Source: Vicinamibacterales bacterium
GTDB taxonomy: Bacteria; Acidobacteriota; Vicinamibacteria; Vicinamibacterales; UBA8438
NCBI GenBank assembly: GCA_965261285.1
Contig: OZ253457.1
Location: forward strand, 2,089,396 to 2,153,395
DNA length: 64,000 nt
Direction: 5' to 3'
Position 1 is the stretch's first letter; the number at the start of each line of letters is the position of its first letter. The position numbers and the translations under genes are program-made. Shown one piece after another: positions 25,875-35,349 of this stretch. Under the pieces are notes generated by a model that was not told the DNA's origin, searched no databases, and saw nothing but the letters and a program-made list of their open reading frames with translations.

Positions 25875-27396
25875 GGCCGTCCCGCGCCGCACTCCGAGTG
25901 GCGCCCCGGTCCGCCGCCCATCCCGCCGCGAGGGTCACCGCGGCGCCGATGAGGACGTACCACTGCCAGGACACGCTCGTGAGCAGCCGGACCGCCAGCA
26001 TCACGCCGGCGCCGACCGCGATCCCGGCGTACGCGGTCGCGTTGCGGCGGTAGCCGGCGAGGCCCAGGAGGAAGACGCCGAGGATGAGGCCGTTGGTGAA
26101 CGACGAGATGCCCAGCACCTCGTCGACGATGCTCCGCGAGACGGGAATCGCGGCGAGGGCCACGACCACCTGGACGGCGCCCCAGACGACGGTGGCGCGG
26201 CGGGCCACCGCGAGGTAGTGCCCGGCCGGCCGGCCGCCGCCGGTGGCGGGCAGGTAGAAGTCGGCCAGGGTGGTCGACGCCGACGCGGTCAGCGACGACG
26301 ACAGCGTGGACATCGCCGCCGCGACGACCGCGGCGACCATGAGGCCCCGCACGCCGGCCGGCAGTTCGGTGACGATGAACGTCGGGAAGACGCGGTCGGT
26401 CTGGACCGCTCCCCCGGGGGCCAGCGTCGCCAGCACGTCCGGGGCGTGGCCCGTGTAGTAGACGTAGAGCATGACCCCGATGACGAGGAAGAGCGCGAAC
26501 TGCGCGAGGACCACGACCCCGCTCCAGAGCAGGGCCCGGCCCGCCGCCTCCCGGGACCGGCTGCACAGGTACCGCTGCACGATGAGCTGATCGGTGCCGT
26601 GGGTGGAGACGGTGAGGCACGCTCCCCCGACGAGGCCCGACCAGAAGGTGTAGCTCCGGGTCGGGTCGAGAGAGAAGTCGAGCAGGCGGAACCGGTCCGC
26701 CGCGGAGCCGGCTGCGGTCACCTCCGCCCATCCGCCCGGGATGAGGTCGAGGAGGACGACCGCGGCGACGACCGAGCCGCCCAGGTACACCGCGAGCTGC
26801 ACCATGTCCGTCCACAGCACCGCGGTCAGCCCGCCGCGCCAGGTGTAGGCGGTGGTGACCGCGCCCATCGCCACGATCGACAGGACGAGCAGGGTGGTGG
26901 ACGGCGCGAGCCCCGGGGCCAGCGCGGCGGCGGCGGCGCCGGCGGCCGGCCATGTCAGGAGGGCCGCCCCGAGGACGATCCCCGCGGCCATGAGCCGGAG
27001 GCCGTCGGCGAGGTTCCGGGTCGCGAGGAAGATGGTGGCGGCGAGGCGGCCCACGCCGGCGTCGAAGCGCTCGGCGAGAATCTGGTAGACGGTGAGGTAC
27101 TCCCCCCGGAAGTAGCCCGGCAGCAGGAGCACGGTGATGATCGCCCTGCCCGCGAGGTAGCCGAGCACGAGCTGCAGGAAAGTGAGGTCGGTCCCGAAGG
27201 CGAACCCCGGGACGCTGACGAGGGTCGCGGTGCTCGTCTCCGTCGCGACGATCGAGGCCATCACCACGCCCCACGGCGCCCGGCGGCCGGCCGCGAAGTA
27301 GTCGCGGACGGTCGCCTGGCCGCGCGCGAGGACCAGGCCCAGCGAGAGGGTCGCCGCCATGTAGACGACGATGACCAGGAGGTCGAGCAGGCTCAT
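25858..27396 (-). CDS. Sodium:solute symporter (SSS) family transporter
   Basis: MSLLDLLVIVVYMAATLSLGLVLARG..., DYFAAGRRAPWGVVMASIVATETSTATLVSVPG, and ~13 hydrophobic segments. Confidence 0.85.
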   Translation of the reverse strand: MSLLDLLVIVVYMAATLSLGLVLARGQATVRDYFAAGRRAPWGVVMASIVATETSTATLVSVPGFAFGTDLTFLQLVLGYLAGRAIITVLLLPGYFRGEYLTVYQILAERFDAGVGRLAATIFLATRNLADGLRLMAAGIVLGAALLTWPAAGAAAAALAPGLAPSTTLLVLSIVAMGAVTTAYTWRGGLTAVLWTDMVQLAVYLGGSVVAAVVLLDLIPGGWAEVTAAGSAADRFRLLDFSLDPTRSYTFWSGLVGGACLTVSTHGTDQLIVQRYLCSRSREAAGRALLWSGVVVLAQFALFLVIGVMLYVYYTGHAPDVLATLAPGGAVQTDRVFPTFIVTELPAGVRGLMVAAVVAAAMSTLSSSLTASASTTLADFYLPATGGGRPAGHYLAVARRATVVWGAVQVVVALAAIPVSRSIVDEVLGISSFTNGLILGVFLLGLAGYRRNATAYAGIAVGAGVMLAVRLLTSVSWQWYVLIGAAVTLAAGWAADRGATRSAARDGRQSAP

Positions 27397-28426: not shown

Positions 28427-28637
28427 GAGACGCCACCCGACGGAGGGTGCGGCGGATACTACTCCTCGGTCCGGCGGGTGTCAACCGGGGCACCGGCGGC
28501 TCCGCGGCGGGTGCTTCGGCGTCGCGGCGGGGCCGGGAGCGAATCGGCCGGGGAGCGCCCGCGGCCGGAACGGCGGGCCGGAAGCCCCGCGCCGCTCCGG
28601 CCGGAAGCCGGCCGGCTTCGCTCGCCGGCCGGGCGGG

Positions 28638-28666
28638 TTGACGGCGGGGCCGCGAACGGCTAGAAT
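28638..28666 (+). promoter_or_regulatory. Sigma-70-like promoter TTGACG-N17-TAGAAT
   Basis: TTGACG at 28638-28643 and TAGAAT at 28661-28666 with 17-nt spacing. It lies in the 430-nt divergent murQ/hom intergenic region, ~45 nt upstream of the leader ORF. Confidence 0.5.
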
Positions 28667-28711
28667 GCGCTGTTGATCCGAAGGGCGTGGCAGCAAGCTC
28701 GGGCGCAGGCC

Positions 28712-28783
28712 ATGACAGAGAACATGACGACTCCGGTTGTGATGACCACCATGGCGCCCGCTCCGCGCGGGCACAGTGGGTGA
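28712..28783 (+). promoter_or_regulatory. Candidate leader peptide ORF (MTENMTTPVVMTTMAPAPRGHSG) of a thr-type attenuator
   Basis: 23 codons, with 5 Thr and 4 Met codons among the first 14. It sits between the promoter and the intrinsic terminator that precedes hom. Confidence 0.45.
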
Positions 28784-28813
28784 TGTAGCCGGAGAGCAGC
28801 AGGGTCCGACCAG

Positions 28814-28845
28814 CCATCATCCACACCGGATGATGGTTTTTTTTT
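28814..28845 (+). terminator. Rho-independent terminator / attenuator hairpin
   Basis: CCATCATCC-ACACC-GGATGATGG followed by T9. This is the only long T-run I noticed in the window. It ends 10 nt before the hom ATG (28856). Confidence 0.8.
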
Positions 28846-28855
28846 GCACAGTCGC

Positions 28856-30184
28856 ATGGACGTGGTGACGGCCAGTCGACCGACCGGGTGCGCGTGCACC
28901 GTGGGCATCGCGGGTTTCGGAACGGTGGGCCGGGCGGTGGCCCGCATCCTCTCCGACGGCTCGCACCCGGGCCTGCGGCTGACGCACGTCTGCAACCGCG
29001 ACGTCGCCCGCAAGCGTGTCGACTGGGCGGGACCCGACGTGGTCTGGACCGACTCGTTCCAGGCCCTCGTCGACAGCCCGGTCGACGTCATCGTCGAGCT
29101 GATCGGCGGGCAGGATCCGGCCCGGGCGTGGATCGAGCAGGCGCTGGCCGCCGGCAAGTCCGTCGTCACCGCCAACAAGCAGGTCATCGCCCACGGCGGC
29201 CCCGCGTTGCTGCAGGAGGCGGGACGCCGGGGCCGGCACCTGTTGTTCGAGGCCGCCGTGGCGGGCGGGATCCCGATTCTCCGGGGGCTCCGGGAAGGCG
29301 TGGCGGGGGACCGCCTGCGGCGGATTCAGGGCATCCTCAACGGCACCTGCAACTACGTCCTGACCCGGATGGAGAACGCGGGCCTGTCGTTCCGGGACGC
29401 GCTGGCCGAGGCCCAGCGCCTCGGCTACGCCGAGGCGGACCCGACCGACGACGTCGACGGCCACGACGCCGGGGCCAAGCTGGCGATCCTCGCCGGCGTC
29501 GGGCTCGGCCGCGTCGTGCGCGTCGGCGACATCCCGGTGGAGCCGATCACCGCGGTCGCCGCCGTCGACATCGCCTACGCCCGCCGGCTGGGATGCGTCA
29601 TCCGGCAGGTGGCGCGGGCCGAGCTGCTTCCCGACGCGGGCGGCCTGCACGCGGCGGTGCGGCCGGCCCTGGTCTCGGCGGCGTCGACGCTGGGGCGGGT
29701 CGAGGGCAGCCGGAACGTCGTGGTCGTCGACGGGGAGTTCGGGGGAGAGACCGCGTTCTCGGGGTTCGGGGCCGGCGGCGAGCCGACCGCGGTCGCCGTG
29801 GTCTCGGACCTGATGGCGATCGCGCGAGGCAACGCGGCGCCGCCGGACGGCTGGCTGCCGGCCGCGGCAGAACCGTCGCCGGTGGCCCGCGAGTTCGAGG
29901 CCCCCCACTACGTGCGGTTCCTGATCGACGACCGTCCGGGCATCGTCGCGGGCCTGGCCCGGGTCTTCTCGCACCATGGCATCAACCTCGACGCGGTGCT
30001 GCAGGAGCCGGGCTGGCCGAAGGCCGAGCTGCCGTTCGTCATGACCCTCGAGCCGTGCAGCTCGGCGTCGGTCGCGGCGGCGCTGGCCGACGCCGCCCGC
30101 TTCGATTTCCACGTGCGGCCGCCGGTGTGGCTGCCGATGTTCGTCGACCGGCCCGACGCGGCCGACGGTTCGTCGCCGGCGTGA
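28856..30184 (+). CDS. hom: Homoserine dehydrogenase
   Basis: VGIAGFGTVGRAVA (NAD-binding), VVTANKQVIA, FEAAVAGGIPI, ILNGTCNYVLT, LGYAEADPTDDVDGHDAGAKLAILA, and a C-terminal ACT domain. Confidence 0.9.
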   Translation: MDVVTASRPTGCACTVGIAGFGTVGRAVARILSDGSHPGLRLTHVCNRDVARKRVDWAGPDVVWTDSFQALVDSPVDVIVELIGGQDPARAWIEQALAAGKSVVTANKQVIAHGGPALLQEAGRRGRHLLFEAAVAGGIPILRGLREGVAGDRLRRIQGILNGTCNYVLTRMENAGLSFRDALAEAQRLGYAEADPTDDVDGHDAGAKLAILAGVGLGRVVRVGDIPVEPITAVAAVDIAYARRLGCVIRQVARAELLPDAGGLHAAVRPALVSAASTLGRVEGSRNVVVVDGEFGGETAFSGFGAGGEPTAVAVVSDLMAIARGNAAPPDGWLPAAAEPSPVAREFEAPHYVRFLIDDRPGIVAGLARVFSHHGINLDAVLQEPGWPKAELPFVMTLEPCSSASVAAALADAARFDFHVRPPVWLPMFVDRPDAADGSSPA

Positions 30185-30288
30185 TCGGGTGCATCCACAC
30201 CGCGCCGACGCGGGCGCCGCGGGGTCGGCCGGGGCGGCGGCGGCGCGAGACGGCGGCAGAGCCGGAGACAGGGATCGTCGGGCCGGCC

Positions 30289-30315
30289 GTCTGCGCCGTA
30301 GAACCGCGCGTGCGG
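30289..30315. repeat. REP-like palindromic element copy (degenerate)
   Basis: GTCTGCGCCGTAGAACCGCGCGTGCGG in the hom-thrC spacer. Core GTCTGCGCCGTAGAAC is the reverse complement of GTTCTACGGCGCAGAC. Confidence 0.45.
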
Positions 30316-30391
30316 CCGGCCGAGCGGAGCCGTCAGGCGGCGGTCGCCCGTCAGGTCCCCGGCGGACCAGAGCGAAAGGGGAGGAGCGTTC

Positions 30392-31642
30392 ATGAGTGCG
30401 TTCACCGGTCTGCGGTGTGCGATGTGCAAGACCGGGTTTCCGTCGGAGGCGTTGTACGTCTGCGACCAGTGCCTCGGTCCCCTCGAGGCGGTATACGACT
30501 ATGATGCGGCGCGGCGGACGCTCACCCGCGAGGCCGTCGCGGGGCGGCCGCGCAACCTCTGGCGCTACCGCGAGCTGCTCCCCGTCACCGGCGAGCCCCG
30601 GACCGGCCTTCATTCCGGCTGCACCCCGCTGGTGCGGGCGCACCGGCTGGGACGCGAGCTCGGGGTGGCCGAGCTCTACCTCAAGGACGATTCCGTGAAC
30701 CACCCGACGCTGTCCTACAAGGACCGCGTCGTGCCGGTGGCGGCCACGCGGGCCGTCGAGCTCGGGTTCGACACCCTGGGCTGCGCGTCGACCGGCAACC
30801 TCGGCAACAGCGTGGCCGCCCACGCGGCCCGGCTCGGCCTGACGTGCTACGTGTTCATCCCCCACGACCTGGAGCCGGGCAAGATTCTCGGCTCGGCCGT
30901 CGCCGGCCCCCACATCGTGAAGATCGACGGCACCTACGACGACGTGAACCGGCTGTGCACCCAGGCCGGCGAACGGTACGGGTGGGCGTTCGCCAACATC
31001 AACCTGCGCAGCTACTACGCCGAGGGGGCCAAGACGTACGGCTTCGAGATCGTCGAGCAGTTGGGGTGGCGCTATCCGCGCCACGTCGTCTCGCCGGTGG
31101 CCGGGGGGACCCTGCTGCCGCGCATCGGGCGGGCGTTCCGCGAGCTGCGCGAGGTGGGGCTGGCCGAGGGAGAGCTGCCGAGGATCCACGCGGCGCAGGC
31201 GGCGGGATGCGCGCCGGTGATCAACGCCCTCGAGAGCGGGGCCGAGTATCCGGAGCCGGTGCGGCCCGACACCATCGCGAAGTCGATTGCCATCGGCAAC
31301 CCCGCCGACGGCCACCAGGTGCTCGAGACGGTGCGGGGCAGCGGGGGGACCGGGGCGCGGGCGACCGACGCGGAGATTCTCGACGCCATCGCCCTGCTGG
31401 CGCGCACCGAGGGCATCTTCACCGAGCCCGCCGGCGGCACCACTCTCGCCGCCACCATCAACCTGCTCGAGGCGGGGGCGATCCCGAAGGACGAGTCGCT
31501 GGTCGTGTGCATCACCGGCAACGGGTACAAGACCGCCCACGTCATGGCCGACCACCCCACCGAGTCGACCCACATCGGCCGGTCGCTGCGCGAGTTCGAG
31601 GCGTTCATGGCCTCGCGGACGGGGCAGCCGGTCCATTCCTGA
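30392..31642 (+). CDS. thrC: Threonine synthase (with N-terminal Cys4 zinc-ribbon)
   Basis: CAMC...CDQC N-terminus. PLP lysine motif NHPTLSYKDRVV, plus CASTGNLGNSVAAHAA and TEPAGG. Confidence 0.9.
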   Translation: MSAFTGLRCAMCKTGFPSEALYVCDQCLGPLEAVYDYDAARRTLTREAVAGRPRNLWRYRELLPVTGEPRTGLHSGCTPLVRAHRLGRELGVAELYLKDDSVNHPTLSYKDRVVPVAATRAVELGFDTLGCASTGNLGNSVAAHAARLGLTCYVFIPHDLEPGKILGSAVAGPHIVKIDGTYDDVNRLCTQAGERYGWAFANINLRSYYAEGAKTYGFEIVEQLGWRYPRHVVSPVAGGTLLPRIGRAFRELREVGLAEGELPRIHAAQAAGCAPVINALESGAEYPEPVRPDTIAKSIAIGNPADGHQVLETVRGSGGTGARATDAEILDAIALLARTEGIFTEPAGGTTLAATINLLEAGAIPKDESLVVCITGNGYKTAHVMADHPTESTHIGRSLREFEAFMASRTGQPVHS

Positions 31643-31655
31643 GAGAGCGTGCGCC

Positions 31656-32945
<1,290 letters not shown>

Positions 32946-33024: not shown

Positions 33025-34284
33025 ATGACCGCGCCGGCGGATCGCGAGGACGCGGTCGTCGTGCAGAAGTACGGGGGGACGTCGGTGGCGACGGCGGAGC
33101 GGATTCTCGCCATCGCCGACCGCATCGAGCGGAACCTGGGCCGGACCCCGCGGCTGGTGGTGGTGCTCTCGGCCATGGGCAGCACCACCGACGAGCTCGT
33201 CGGCCTCGCCCACCAGGTCTCCGACCGGCCCGCGGGCCGCGAGATGGACCTCCTGCTCTCGACCGGCGAGCAGGTCACGGTGTCGCTGCTGGGCCTGGCC
33301 CTCCAGAACCGGGACATTCCCGCCATCTCCCTCACCGCACTGCAGTGCGGCATCCGCACCGACGGGGTGTTCAACGTCGCGCGCATCCGCAGCATCGACA
33401 CCGCCCGCATCCGCGCCGAGCTCGACGCGGGACGGGTGGTCATCGTGACCGGCTTCCAGGGCATCAACGACGCCGACGACGTCACGACGCTGGGCCGCGG
33501 GGGGAGCGACATCACCGGGGCCGCCCTCGCCGCCGCCCTCGGCGCGGACGCCTGCGAGATCTGCACCGACGTGGACGGGGTCTTCTCCGCCGACCCCTCG
33601 CGGGTGCCCGGGGCGAGGCTGTGGGCGGAGATCAGCTACGAGGAGGCCATCGAGATGGCCTCGAGCGGTGCCAAGGTCCTGCACCCCCGCGCCGCCGAAG
33701 TGTGCATGGAGTACGACGTGCCGATTCACGTGCGCAGCAGCTTCCACCTGCGCGAGGGCACCTGGATTCGAGGAGCGGCGAGCATCATGGAACGAGCCGA
33801 GGTGGTGGCGGTCACCGGGGACGCGAAGATCGCCAAGTTCACGTTGCGGGACGTGCCGGACGAGCCGGGCATGGCGGCGCGGGTCTTCCAGGACCTCGCG
33901 GCCGGGGGCATCAACGTCCGGCTCATCATTCAGAGCGCGAGCTCCGCCCACCAGGGCCGCATCACGTTCATCCTCGACAAGGAGTTCGTCGCGGGGGCGC
34001 GGGAGCTCGCGCGGAGCTGGGAGGCCGGGGGGGTGACCAGCGGCTGCGTGGTCGAGGACGACGTCGCCAAGATCTCCATCGTGGGCTCGCGGCTCGCCGC
34101 GACGCCGGGGCTCGCGGCGCGCATGTTCGCGGTCCTCGCTCGCCGGGGCATCAACATCGACTGCATCAGCTCGTCGGAGATGAAGGTGGCCTGCGTGATC
34201 TCGGCCGAGCGGCTCGACGAGGCCACCGCGGCGGTGCACGAGGAGTTCTTTCCCGCGAAGGAGACCGCGGCGGCGACGGCCTGA
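33025..34284 (+). CDS. lysC: Aspartate kinase (monofunctional, two ACT domains)
   Basis: VVVQKYGGTSVAT, VVVLSAMGSTTDEL, TLGRGGSDITGAALAAAL, ICTDVDGVFSADP, EMASSGAKVLHPRA, and C-terminal ACT repeats. Confidence 0.9.
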   Translation: MTAPADREDAVVVQKYGGTSVATAERILAIADRIERNLGRTPRLVVVLSAMGSTTDELVGLAHQVSDRPAGREMDLLLSTGEQVTVSLLGLALQNRDIPAISLTALQCGIRTDGVFNVARIRSIDTARIRAELDAGRVVIVTGFQGINDADDVTTLGRGGSDITGAALAAALGADACEICTDVDGVFSADPSRVPGARLWAEISYEEAIEMASSGAKVLHPRAAEVCMEYDVPIHVRSSFHLREGTWIRGAASIMERAEVVAVTGDAKIAKFTLRDVPDEPGMAARVFQDLAAGGINVRLIIQSASSAHQGRITFILDKEFVAGARELARSWEAGGVTSGCVVEDDVAKISIVGSRLAATPGLAARMFAVLARRGINIDCISSSEMKVACVISAERLDEATAAVHEEFFPAKETAAATA

Positions 34285-34302: not shown

Positions 34303-35349
34303 ATGAGCACGAAGATCGAGGCGGGCGTACTGGGTGCGACGGGAACGGTGGGGCAGGAGTTCATCACCCGGCTGGCCGACCATCCGTGGTTCGAGGTCGC
34401 GTGGATCGGCGCCAGCGAGCGCTCGGCCGGCAAGGCCTACCGGGACGCCACTCCCTGGCGCCTGCCGGCGCCGCGGCCGGACCGCATCGCGGACATGACC
34501 GTCGATCGGGTGACGCCGGGCCGGGCGCCGAAGCTGCTGTTCTCGGGCCTCGACGCGTCGGTGGCGGGGGAGGTGGAGGCGGAGTTCGCCCGGGCGGGCC
34601 ACGTCGTGGTCAGCAACGCCCGCAACCACCGCATGGACCCGCTGGTGCCGCTCGTGATTCCCGAGGTGAACGCGGACCATCTCGCCCTGCTGGACGAGCA
34701 GGGCGCGGCCCGGGGCTGGCCGGGCCTCATCGTCACCAACCCCAACTGCTCGACCATCGTCCTCGCCCTCGCCCTGGCCCCGCTGCGCGAGTTCGGCCTG
34801 AGGCAGGTCATCGTCTCCACCCTGCAGGCGGCGTCCGGCGCCGGGTATCCGGGCGTGGCGTCGCTCGACCTCGTCGGCAACGTCATTCCGGTGGTACGCG
34901 GCGAAGAGTCGAAGATGGAGACGGAGACGCAGAAGATCCTCGGCCGCGTGAACGGCAGCGGGGTGGAGCCCCATCCGGTGACGGTCAGCGCGGGCACCAC
35001 CCGGGTGCCGGTCATCAACGGTCACACCGAGCTGGTGTCGGCGTCCCTCGACGCGGCGCCCCCCGTCGACGACATCGTCGCCGCCATCCGCGGCTTCCGC
35101 GGGCGCCCGCAGGAGCTCGGCCTGCCCGGCGCCCCGCCGCGGCCCGTGCTCTACATGGACGAGGAGGACCGGCCGCAGCCGCGCCTCGACGCCGACCGCG
35201 ACCGCGGCATGGCGGTGTGCGTCGGCCGCCTCCGCACGTGCCCGGTGCTCGGCTACAAGCTCGTCGCGATGGGGCACAACACCGTCCGCGGCGCCGCGGG
35301 GGCGGCGGTGCTGAACGCGGAGCTGTTGAAGGCGACGGGCCGGCTGTAG
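34303..35349 (+). CDS. asd: Aspartate-semialdehyde dehydrogenase
   Basis: GVLGATGTVGQEF, NPNCSTIVLALAL (active-site Cys), SGAGY, and RVPVINGHTE (active-site His region). Confidence 0.9.
   Translation: MSTKIEAGVLGATGTVGQEFITRLADHPWFEVAWIGASERSAGKAYRDATPWRLPAPRPDRIADMTVDRVTPGRAPKLLFSGLDASVAGEVEAEFARAGHVVVSNARNHRMDPLVPLVIPEVNADHLALLDEQGAARGWPGLIVTNPNCSTIVLALALAPLREFGLRQVIVSTLQAASGAGYPGVASLDLVGNVIPVVRGEESKMETETQKILGRVNGSGVEPHPVTVSAGTTRVPVINGHTELVSASLDAAPPVDDIVAAIRGFRGRPQELGLPGAPPRPVLYMDEEDRPQPRLDADRDRGMAVCVGRLRTCPVLGYKLVAMGHNTVRGAAGAAVLNAELLKATGRL

Follow-up and report, generated by a model that had tools for sequence, protein, structure and literature searches.

In the trp, his, leu and ilvGMEDA leaders of E. 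coli and Salmonella, a ribosome near the stop codon masks segment 2 of the leader RNA, so that segments 3 and 4 pair and transcription terminates, and an upstream stall frees segment 2. Some of the E. coli leaders are multivalent, the thr leader reading Thr and Ile, and the ilvGMEDA leader, with its mixed codons, several amino acids. In the thr leader (thrL, RF00506) an ORF of Thr codons mixed with those of a second pathway-related amino acid, Ile, stands before aspartate-family genes, the first of which is thrA, and an intrinsic terminator competes with an antiterminator under a ribosome-stalling logic. T-box leaders work without translation, by direct binding of uncharged tRNA, and they reuse one conserved expression platform before many amino-acid genes, a small variable part, the specifier codon, setting the specificity. 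By 2010, demonstrated cases of leader-peptide attenuation were confined to Proteobacteria and Actinobacteria, to which a study of that year added a candidate from the Firmicutes; the same survey remarked that, of the attenuators predicted in Acidobacteria, almost none could be given a function (PMC2965389). Among the actinobacterial trp attenuators, conserved complementary triples of the form gGCC-rGCy-GGCC are retained over long evolutionary distances (Seliverstov et al. 2005, PMC1262725); in the same work, threonine and methionine genes yielded no RNA element.

The leader described here precedes the hom-thrC-(TIGR00300)-lysC-asd operon of a sponge-associated acidobacterium, and it was analysed within a window (the whole 64-kb stretch of DNA under study, 71% GC) whose DNA is found in sponge metagenomes. 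We consider it a probable ribosome-mediated (leader-peptide) transcription attenuator of that operon, and we would put the probability of this reading at about 0.8. Its elements, their conservation, the mutually exclusive pairings, the position of the stop codon inside a pairing strand and a codon bias specific to the downstream gene are directly established, and on account of the elements, conservation, exclusive pairings and bias the attenuator reading is well supported. The preliminary description of this DNA had likened the layout to that of the E. coli thr leader, and as regards mechanism the comparison stands: both have a Thr-codon ORF mixed with a second pathway-related amino acid before aspartate-family genes, and in both a terminator competes with an antiterminator under what would be the same ribosome-stalling logic. 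However, cmscan finds no sequence or structure homology between the two, Met takes the place of Ile as the second amino acid, the operon opens with a monofunctional hom where that of E. coli has thrA, the ORF here ends within the strand that forms the antiterminator, its 1:2 protector is weak, and the phylum is a different one. At gathering thresholds, Rfam has no match to Thr_leader (RF00506), T-box, riboswitch or any other leader family in the whole window, and between positions 27000 and 30000 a search at E up to 10 returned only chance-level matches (mir-598, sar and similar). As such, we regard the likeness to the thr leader as a mechanistic analogy and not as homology.

The other described systems each share a part of the arrangement. 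As in the trp, his, leu and ilvGMEDA leaders, a ribosome near the stop would mask segment 2 and leave 3:4 to terminate, and a stall further upstream would free segment 2; unlike those leaders, in which the sequences are operon-specific, one frozen module of segments 2, 3 and 4 here stands before several operons and only the ORF changes. The triple signature of the actinobacterial trp attenuators is also that of the blocks found here (GGGUGAUG, CAUCAUCC, GGAUGAUGG), although the sequence, the amino acid and the phylum all differ. The reuse of a conserved platform with a small variable part recalls the T-box leaders, with the distinction that the specificity of the acidobacterial module would lie in the codon content of its ORF; no T-box model matches the window. 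What is new is the phylum, the mix of Thr and Met codons, and a single sequence-frozen platform with built-in stops common to several operons, while the mechanism is classical. We know of no described Met-codon attenuator. A full-text literature search found no earlier description of this module or of Met-codon attenuators, the cross-phylum attenuator survey of Lopatovskaya et al. 2010 (Mol Biol 44:128) being outside its scope.

The coordinates of the leader and of the operon are collected in Table 1. A TTGACG-N17-TAGAAT promoter, a 23-codon ORF with five Thr and four Met codons among its first 14, an intrinsic terminator with an ACACC loop whose T9 tract ends 10 nt before the hom ATG, and the gene order of the operon had all been reported previously; every one of these elements was recovered at its reported position and is unlikely to have arisen there by chance, and the genes are confirmed by NCBIfam. 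In a promoter consensus scan, TTGACG-N17-TAGAAT-like sites occur twice in 2.5 kb against 0.1 expected, and we would place the start of transcription at about 28672-28675, some 40 nt 5' of the ORF. The promoter is also seen in alignments of relatives' leaders, and among 91 unique leaders, 26 have a TTGACN-16..18-TANNNT motif 100-120 nt 5' of the stop of the small ORF, as compared to 35 of 3000 random windows; the strict regular expression matches only these 26 because many of the -10 boxes are TATAAA-like. At the other end of the leader, the hom ATG (28856) lies 10 nt past the end of the T run. This tract had been called striking in DNA so rich in GC, and it is the sole run of six or more T in the entire window, in which the terminator core occurs once against 0.00 expected. 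The gene 5' of the leader, murQ, is divergent, and the terminator therefore does not end an upstream transcript. The 207-nt gap between hom and thrC, when read through, showed neither a T run nor any obvious second attenuator. Synteny of hom and thrC is kept in most relatives.

Table 1. Positions, in the window, of the leader elements and of the genes behind them.
Feature	Position	Strand	Description
Promoter, sigma-70-type	28638-28666	+	TTGACG 28638-28643, N17, TAGAAT 28661-28666; 10/12 consensus positions
Leader ORF	28712-28783	+	23 codons and UGA; ATG 28712, TGA 28781-28783; encodes MTENMTTPVVMTTMAPAPRGHSG
Thr12-Thr13-Met14	28745-28753	+	ACC ACC AUG; best-conserved regulatory codon cluster, 10-12 codons 5' of stop
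P1 hairpin	28754-28774	+	GCCCGC (28756-28761) : GCGGGC (28767-28772)
Region 2	28776-28789	+	GUGGGUGAUGUAGC; antiterminator 5' strand, near-invariant in 55 distinct sequences; pairs with region 3
Terminator stem	28812-28838	+	11 pairs, loop ACACC; then T9 28837-28845
Region 3	28812-28824	+	AGCCAUCAUCCAC (GCCAUCAUCCAC); common to antiterminator (28813-28824) and terminator 5' arm (28812-28822)
Region 4	28828-28845	+	Terminator 3' arm GGAUGAUGGUU (28828-28838) and U9 (28837-28845), from terminator scan; also given as GGAUGAUGG, then U9
hom (homoserine dehydrogenase)	28856-30184	+	First gene controlled; NCBIfam
thrC (threonine synthase)	30392-31642		3' of hom; NCBIfam
TIGR00300 protein	about 31655-32945		3' of thrC; now named nickel-pincer-nucleotide-dependent ornithine cyclodeaminase; NCBIfam
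lysC (aspartate kinase)	about 33030-34284		3' of TIGR00300 gene; NCBIfam
asd (aspartate-semialdehyde dehydrogenase)	34303-35349		3' of lysC; NCBIfam

Within the leader ORF, the Thr codons start at 28715, 28727, 28730, 28745 and 28748, and the Met codons at 28712, 28724, 28742 and 28751, so that all five Thr codons and the three internal Met codons fall in codons 2-14; the last regulatory codon, Met14 (28751), is 25 nt 5' of region 2. In the peptides of the window's clade and of a neighbouring clade the motif S/T-T-M is kept. The mixed Thr/Met character noted for this one peptide holds for its hom-linked relatives (16.5-20% Thr and 8-9% Met in frame): the 50 distinct peptides read in frame 0 contain 16.5% Thr and 8.4% internal Met, the other two frames of the same leaders 5.7% and 1.6% Thr and 0.2% Met, and the Hom, ThrC, LysC and Asd proteins of this operon 5.4% Thr and 1.5% Met. 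A reading of the window sequence gives no convincing Shine-Dalgarno element before the small ORF (GGGCGCAGGCC-AUG); such an element is also absent at hom, murQ and the symporter gene, and present at thrC and asd. We infer that the small ORF is translated and that it senses Met. The leader might instead serve mainly as a stand-alone product, whether a micropeptide or a trans-acting small RNA that ends at the terminator, in the manner of the dual use of leader RNA and peptide documented for rnTrpL/peTrpL in Sinorhizobium (PMC7298713, PMC7968998). Attenuators by design release a short terminated RNA, and the C-terminal part of the peptide, APAPRGHSG, is conserved in the window's clade. Between clades, however, the peptide is conserved no further than the RNA blocks impose, and a product of this kind would add to attenuation in cis rather than replace it; as the main function of the leader we hold it to be very improbable.

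The two structures on which the attenuator reading depends compete for region 3. The antiterminator is a 12-bp helix with a bulge, in which GUGGGUGAUG (28776-28785) and, beyond a UA bulge, GC (28788-28789) pair with GC (28813-28814) and CAUCAUCCAC (28815-28824). The pairing of GGTGATG (28779-28785) with CATCATC (28815-28821) proposed in the preliminary description is contained within it, but the helix extends beyond the 7 bp envisaged there. Region 2 contains the UGA stop of the ORF (28781-28783), an AUG and, in another frame, a UAG (28786-28788). When the nascent RNA is folded from the inferred start to the terminator loop, the minimum free energy structure consists of P1 and the antiterminator (-18.8 kcal/mol for that segment), whereas that of the complete leader includes the terminator, the hairpin of which is -16.3 kcal/mol alone. 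The mutually exclusive structures that had been anticipated are thus both recovered by folding. The antiterminator is the predicted nascent fold even without a ribosome, and the same antiterminator folds in the window with a ribosome placed at Thr13 or Thr7. With the ribosome at the stop and the RNA masked to 28795 (the first 13 nt past the stop), only the terminator can form, in agreement with the earlier suggestion that a terminating ribosome would mask the antiterminator.

Every clade has a hairpin at the position of P1, immediately 5' of region 2, its sequence differing from one clade to another (GCGCCCGC/GCGCGGGC, ACCGGTC/GACCGG, CGACCG/CGGTCG), and its folding shows, as a family-wide tendency, a mean z of -1.16 as compared to +0.12 for a control window. 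It is possible that P1 acts as an RNA-polymerase pause hairpin and forms the core of a weak 1:2 structure, and in some folds CACC (28747-28750) can pair with GGUG (28779-28782) around it. A strong 1:2 protector of the trp type was also considered; it is present in some folds, but in the window it is weak (4 bp and P1) and loses in the nascent fold. Given that the 1:2 pairing does not win the nascent fold, the design of the attenuator may be one of three segments rather than the four of the trp-like arrangement.

It is reasonable to postulate the following course of events for the attenuator. When charged Thr-tRNA, and probably charged Met-tRNA as well, is abundant, the ribosome would follow the polymerase to the stop codon, where its footprint would cover region 2; region 3 would then pair with region 4, and transcription would terminate 10 nt before hom. 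When Thr or Met is scarce, the ribosome would be expected to stall in codons 2-14, at least nine codons before the stop, leaving region 2 free to pair with region 3 once the latter is made, in which case no terminator would form and the operon would be transcribed. The P1 hairpin may pause the polymerase 5' of region 2 and let translation catch up. The geometry is in keeping with such a course, in that the stop lies inside region 2 in all members and the regulatory codons lie 5' of region 2; the masking at the stop codon was judged from the generally known size of the ribosome footprint. Stalling, pausing and regulated termination are presumed for this leader. The most likely role of the element would be to switch on the hom/threonine operon when Thr or Met runs short, and since homoserine is the branch point for both amino acids, bivalent control is physiologically sensible.

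A search with the Hom protein returned 80 loci, nearly all in Acidobacteriota genomes assembled from metagenomes, with the closest relatives (82-97% identity) in the Vicinamibacterales, and the leader recurs 5' of hom at about half of the 80. After two pattern scans, which covered 185,579 species genomes, approximately 66 distinct hom-linked leaders were at hand from Vicinamibacterales and other Acidobacteriota. The small ORF and the alternative pairings, on whose conservation the preliminary description had staked its proposal, are kept in dozens of relatives (Hom 50-97% identical), as are the stop in the antiterminator strand, the competition of the helices and the Thr/Met bias. Three blocks are near-invariant, namely region 2 with GG(G/A)UGAUGUAGC, region 3 with GCCAUCAUCC, and region 4 with GG(A/G)UG(A/G)UGGC and a U run, and regions 2 and 4 are each complementary to region 3. 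In 55 distinct sequences, 99% of cells in the terminator (3:4) are paired, with compensatory changes at three pairs, and 95.7% of cells in the antiterminator (2:3) are paired, as compared to 20-55% when its register is slid by 1-3 nt. The columns of the antiterminator, being nearly invariant, vary too little for covariation statistics by column shuffling to be informative, and its support comes from the slid-register control and from two leaders (L033 and L040) with a three-way compensatory change, in which region 2 reads GUAACC, region 3 GGUCAUC and region 4 GAUGACC. The one frequent substitution in regions 2 and 4 exchanges A and G at positions that face a U of region 3, by which both helices are preserved, and this is, in our judgement, the pattern expected for one strand that pairs with two partners.

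The way in which the small ORF ends is equally constant. Nearly all hom-linked leaders have an ATG-initiated ORF of 21-45 codons which ends on the UGA within GG(G/A)UGAUGUAG; in others (among them L018, L080, L133, L188, L213 and the 'Woeseiaceae' contigs) the frame differs, and translation would end 5 nt later, on the UAG that this block also contains. As both UGA and UAG are in the block, UGAUGUAG closes two of the three frames. The exceptions are one terminator without an ORF (L027), one variant block (L031) and one locus, with a Hom protein of 82% identity (L012), from which the leader has been lost. Outside the three blocks, neither the spacer that separates regions 2 and 3 nor anything 5' of region 2 is constrained in sequence or length, which argues against an aptamer. 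This bears directly on whether the terminator and antiterminator might be the expression platform of a metabolite riboswitch or a T-box-like tRNA sensor, with an ORF that is merely fortuitous. Open frames are common at 71% GC, and P1 and the conserved blocks could form parts of an aptamer, but sequence conservation is confined to the three pairing blocks (P1 included among what varies), no Rfam family gives a match above chance even at E up to 10, and frame, start codon and stop position are all kept, with a codon bias that is specific to one frame. Sensing of this type is accordingly judged to be highly improbable.

The attenuator proposed in front of hom is supported, but the element is not restricted to hom as it had appeared to be; it belongs to a family spread through the phylum. 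The pattern scans found the same three blocks 5' of other Acidobacteriota genes, in Vicinamibacterales, Terriglobia, gp1, gp6 and Solibacteraceae. Among the genes behind the module are ilvD (dihydroxy-acid dehydratase), leuA (2-isopropylmalate synthase), ilvB (acetolactate synthase) and pheA (prephenate dehydratase), and further copies precede genes for a LysR regulator, an MFS efflux protein and a DrrA-like ABC ATPase. The ORFs not linked to hom likewise stop within region 2 (leuA, ...RLRLLALSVAILGLVLAP..SG and stop; ilvD, ...PVVVIITGTVVPD..GMM and stop). The last 25 codons of the hom-linked ORFs comprise 20.3% Thr, 9.2% Met, 2.9% Leu, 2.7% Ile and 8.4% Val, and those of the remaining ORFs 4.9% Thr, 2.3% Met, 17.6% Leu, 7.0% Ile and 15.3% Val, which amounts to a 4-fold enrichment of Thr and Met in hom-linked as compared to non-hom ORFs on the same platform. 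As the RNA platform is equal in both groups, the codon bias is a property of the ORF, one that goes with the pathway, and this switch of codons on a constant platform is, to our minds, what speaks most strongly for sensing by translation. A second, unrelated family of hom leaders was found at 12 loci in other Acidobacteriota, with a terminator of the form CCCGCCGGC..GCCGGCGGG and a U run, and its ORFs are also rich in Thr and Met (MLPLTMTATCSMAMRIRMTRIHHAGGFCAVAS and stop, MLPLTMTATCSMAMRIR...); the bias toward Met therefore does not arise from the GAUGAUG platform.

Not every member of the family fits a model of amino-acid sensing. The pheA-linked copies were considered as Phe sensors, but they have just one Phe codon and the simple model is unsupported, and the ORFs of the ABC-, MFS- and LysR-linked copies have no obvious regulatory codons. 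It could be postulated from these copies that the module is a general sensor of translation or stalling without specificity for Thr or Met, in which stress, antibiotics or global starvation relieve termination as in leaders of the erm or ABC-F type. Such a sensor would suit the copies in front of the MFS efflux gene and the DrrA-like ABC ATPase, whose ORFs lack amino-acid bias, and also a predicted default fold that, without a ribosome, is readthrough. Nevertheless, a general sensor does not account for the 4-fold Thr/Met enrichment of the hom-linked ORFs over others on the same platform, nor for the same Thr/Met bias in the independent hom leader family, and we think it quite improbable.

The copies without obvious regulatory codons bear also on a second possibility, that a trans-acting factor (an RNA-binding attenuation protein like TRAP, PyrR or HutP, or an sRNA) binds the conserved blocks and selects the terminator or the antiterminator, the ORF being secondary or an aid to coupling. 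The blocks are almost invariant across the phylum and before genes as unrelated as hom, ilvD, leuA, ilvB, pheA and those of the LysR, MFS and ABC copies, covariation in the antiterminator is scarce, and an invariance that extends across a phylum and paralogous operons exceeds that of most attenuators and leaves room for an extra factor. The constraint of three-way pairing, however, itself predicts invariance, and the variation that does occur is exactly the A/G opposite U. Furthermore, a factor that senses one signal does not explain the change from Thr/Met to Leu/Ile/Val with the downstream gene, and it leaves unexplained why the stop codon always lies within region 2, in either of two frames. 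We consider control by such a factor improbable, and ribosome-mediated attenuation remains the preferred reading.

A more far-reaching version of that reading may be put forward, albeit as speculation to which we give a low probability. The module could be a portable, phylum-wide attenuator chassis of the Acidobacteriota, with two stops in different frames and an overlapping UGA-AUG, the specificity of which is reset by rewriting of the ORF (Thr and Met at hom; Leu, Ile and Val at leuA, ilvB and ilvD; none at the efflux genes), and which would as such be the leader-peptide counterpart of the T-box. Its sequence would be frozen for a cause beyond pairing, either a dedicated trans factor or a special termination or re-initiation event at UGAUGUAG, and the hom version would be the first sensor of Met-tRNA charging by means of AUG codons. 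If it is true that the freezing has a cause beyond pairing, it would point to an unknown factor. The family provides a concrete and testable set of attenuators for a poorly studied phylum, in which one RNA switch module would serve several operons with only the sensing ORF altered, and in which regulation at the homoserine branch point would be tied to both of its products, Thr and Met. It should also be of use in annotating Acidobacteriota genomes and the small ORFs missing from them, in models of amino-acid regulation for uncultured symbionts of sponge and soil, and potentially as a compact, reprogrammable part for synthetic biology.

Last, the sponge and marine metagenome and metatranscriptome runs that contain the sequence were examined for transcripts of the leader, in the form of assembled contigs in which 3' ends are invisible and DNA is possibly included. 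One of them (X21) gave nothing. Metatranscriptome contigs in X25-X28, from relatives 92-97% identical to the window, begin at about 28632/28690, cross the terminator and enter hom, as they would if the leader and hom shared a common transcript. In one of these (X25), the depth of the contig is higher over the leader.

The proposed attenuator module, in which three mutually complementary RNA blocks (regions 2, 3 and 4) are followed by a U run, is not confined to hom: in Acidobacteriota we also observe GG(G/A)UGAUGUAGC ... GCCAUCAUCC ... GGRUGRUGGC-Un upstream of a range of other genes (see table). The small ORFs at these non-hom copies likewise have their stop codon within the module, and their codon content is rich in Leu, Ile and Val, with no bias ahead of efflux genes. 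One metagenome-assembled genome (UBA2161) carries the module twice, before hom (L188) and before ilvD (L198).

Features of the window and of the loci compared with it
Feature	Position or loci	Strand	Remark
Module before ilvD	L172, L187, L197, L198		
Module before leuA	L200, L210, L215		
Module before ilvB	L219		
Module before pheA	L177, L185		
Module before LysR gene	L171, L202		
Module before MFS gene	L195		
Module before ABC ATPase gene	L108, L149		
Module before unknown-protein gene	L131, L205		
Second hom leader family	L034, L036, L037, L041, L044, L045, L047, L048, L050, L057, L061, L065		hom at 3001 in most loci
Variant hom leader	L027, 2895-2968		
TIGR00300 gene	window 31655-32945	+	nickel-pincer-nucleotide-dependent ornithine cyclodeaminase; NCBIfam, 509 bits vs cut-off 411
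murQ promoter-like site	window 28456-28484	-	divergent; TTGACA-N17-TAGTAT; surrounding string conserved in L010, L022
murQ start ATG	window 28426	-	
hom-thrC gap	window 30185-30391		207 nt, very GC-rich

The module first described here was also found upstream of hom in contigs binned as Woeseiaceae (Gammaproteobacteria; L174, L199, L211), where the hom product is 50-56% identical to that of the window and the small ORF reads MINVRLFNWFKKTVDVNFTISVSTATVVTIFGTTTMPW..MM before its stop; either horizontal transfer or misbinning would account for these copies. Other Acidobacteriota carry a distinct second leader family within 200 nt upstream of hom, with Thr/Met/Cys-rich ORFs (typically MFATITMTCSMCMRIRMTRMLHAGGRLANAV and a stop), a palindrome of the GCGAAUUCGC type and a terminator, CCCGCCGGC..GCCGGCGGG, that runs into a U run.

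Natural variants of the hom leader exist as well. One relative (L012), whose Hom is 82% identical, has neither leader nor terminator upstream of hom (at 3001), while L027 retains the terminator and region 2, the antiterminator 5' strand, but lacks the ORF start codon.

Within the window, the TIGR00300 gene is placed between thrC and lysC, inside the aspartate-family operon. The hom-thrC gap contains no T run, and neither a small ORF nor the signature of a terminator is seen in it. Upstream of thrC there is a strong Shine-Dalgarno sequence, GGGGAGGAG; hom lacks one. The DNA of window positions 28600-30200 is nearly intact in two runs from one organism, and because 30-80% of its sampled words are present in many sponge metagenomes, the window probably derives from a sponge-associated member of the Vicinamibacterales.
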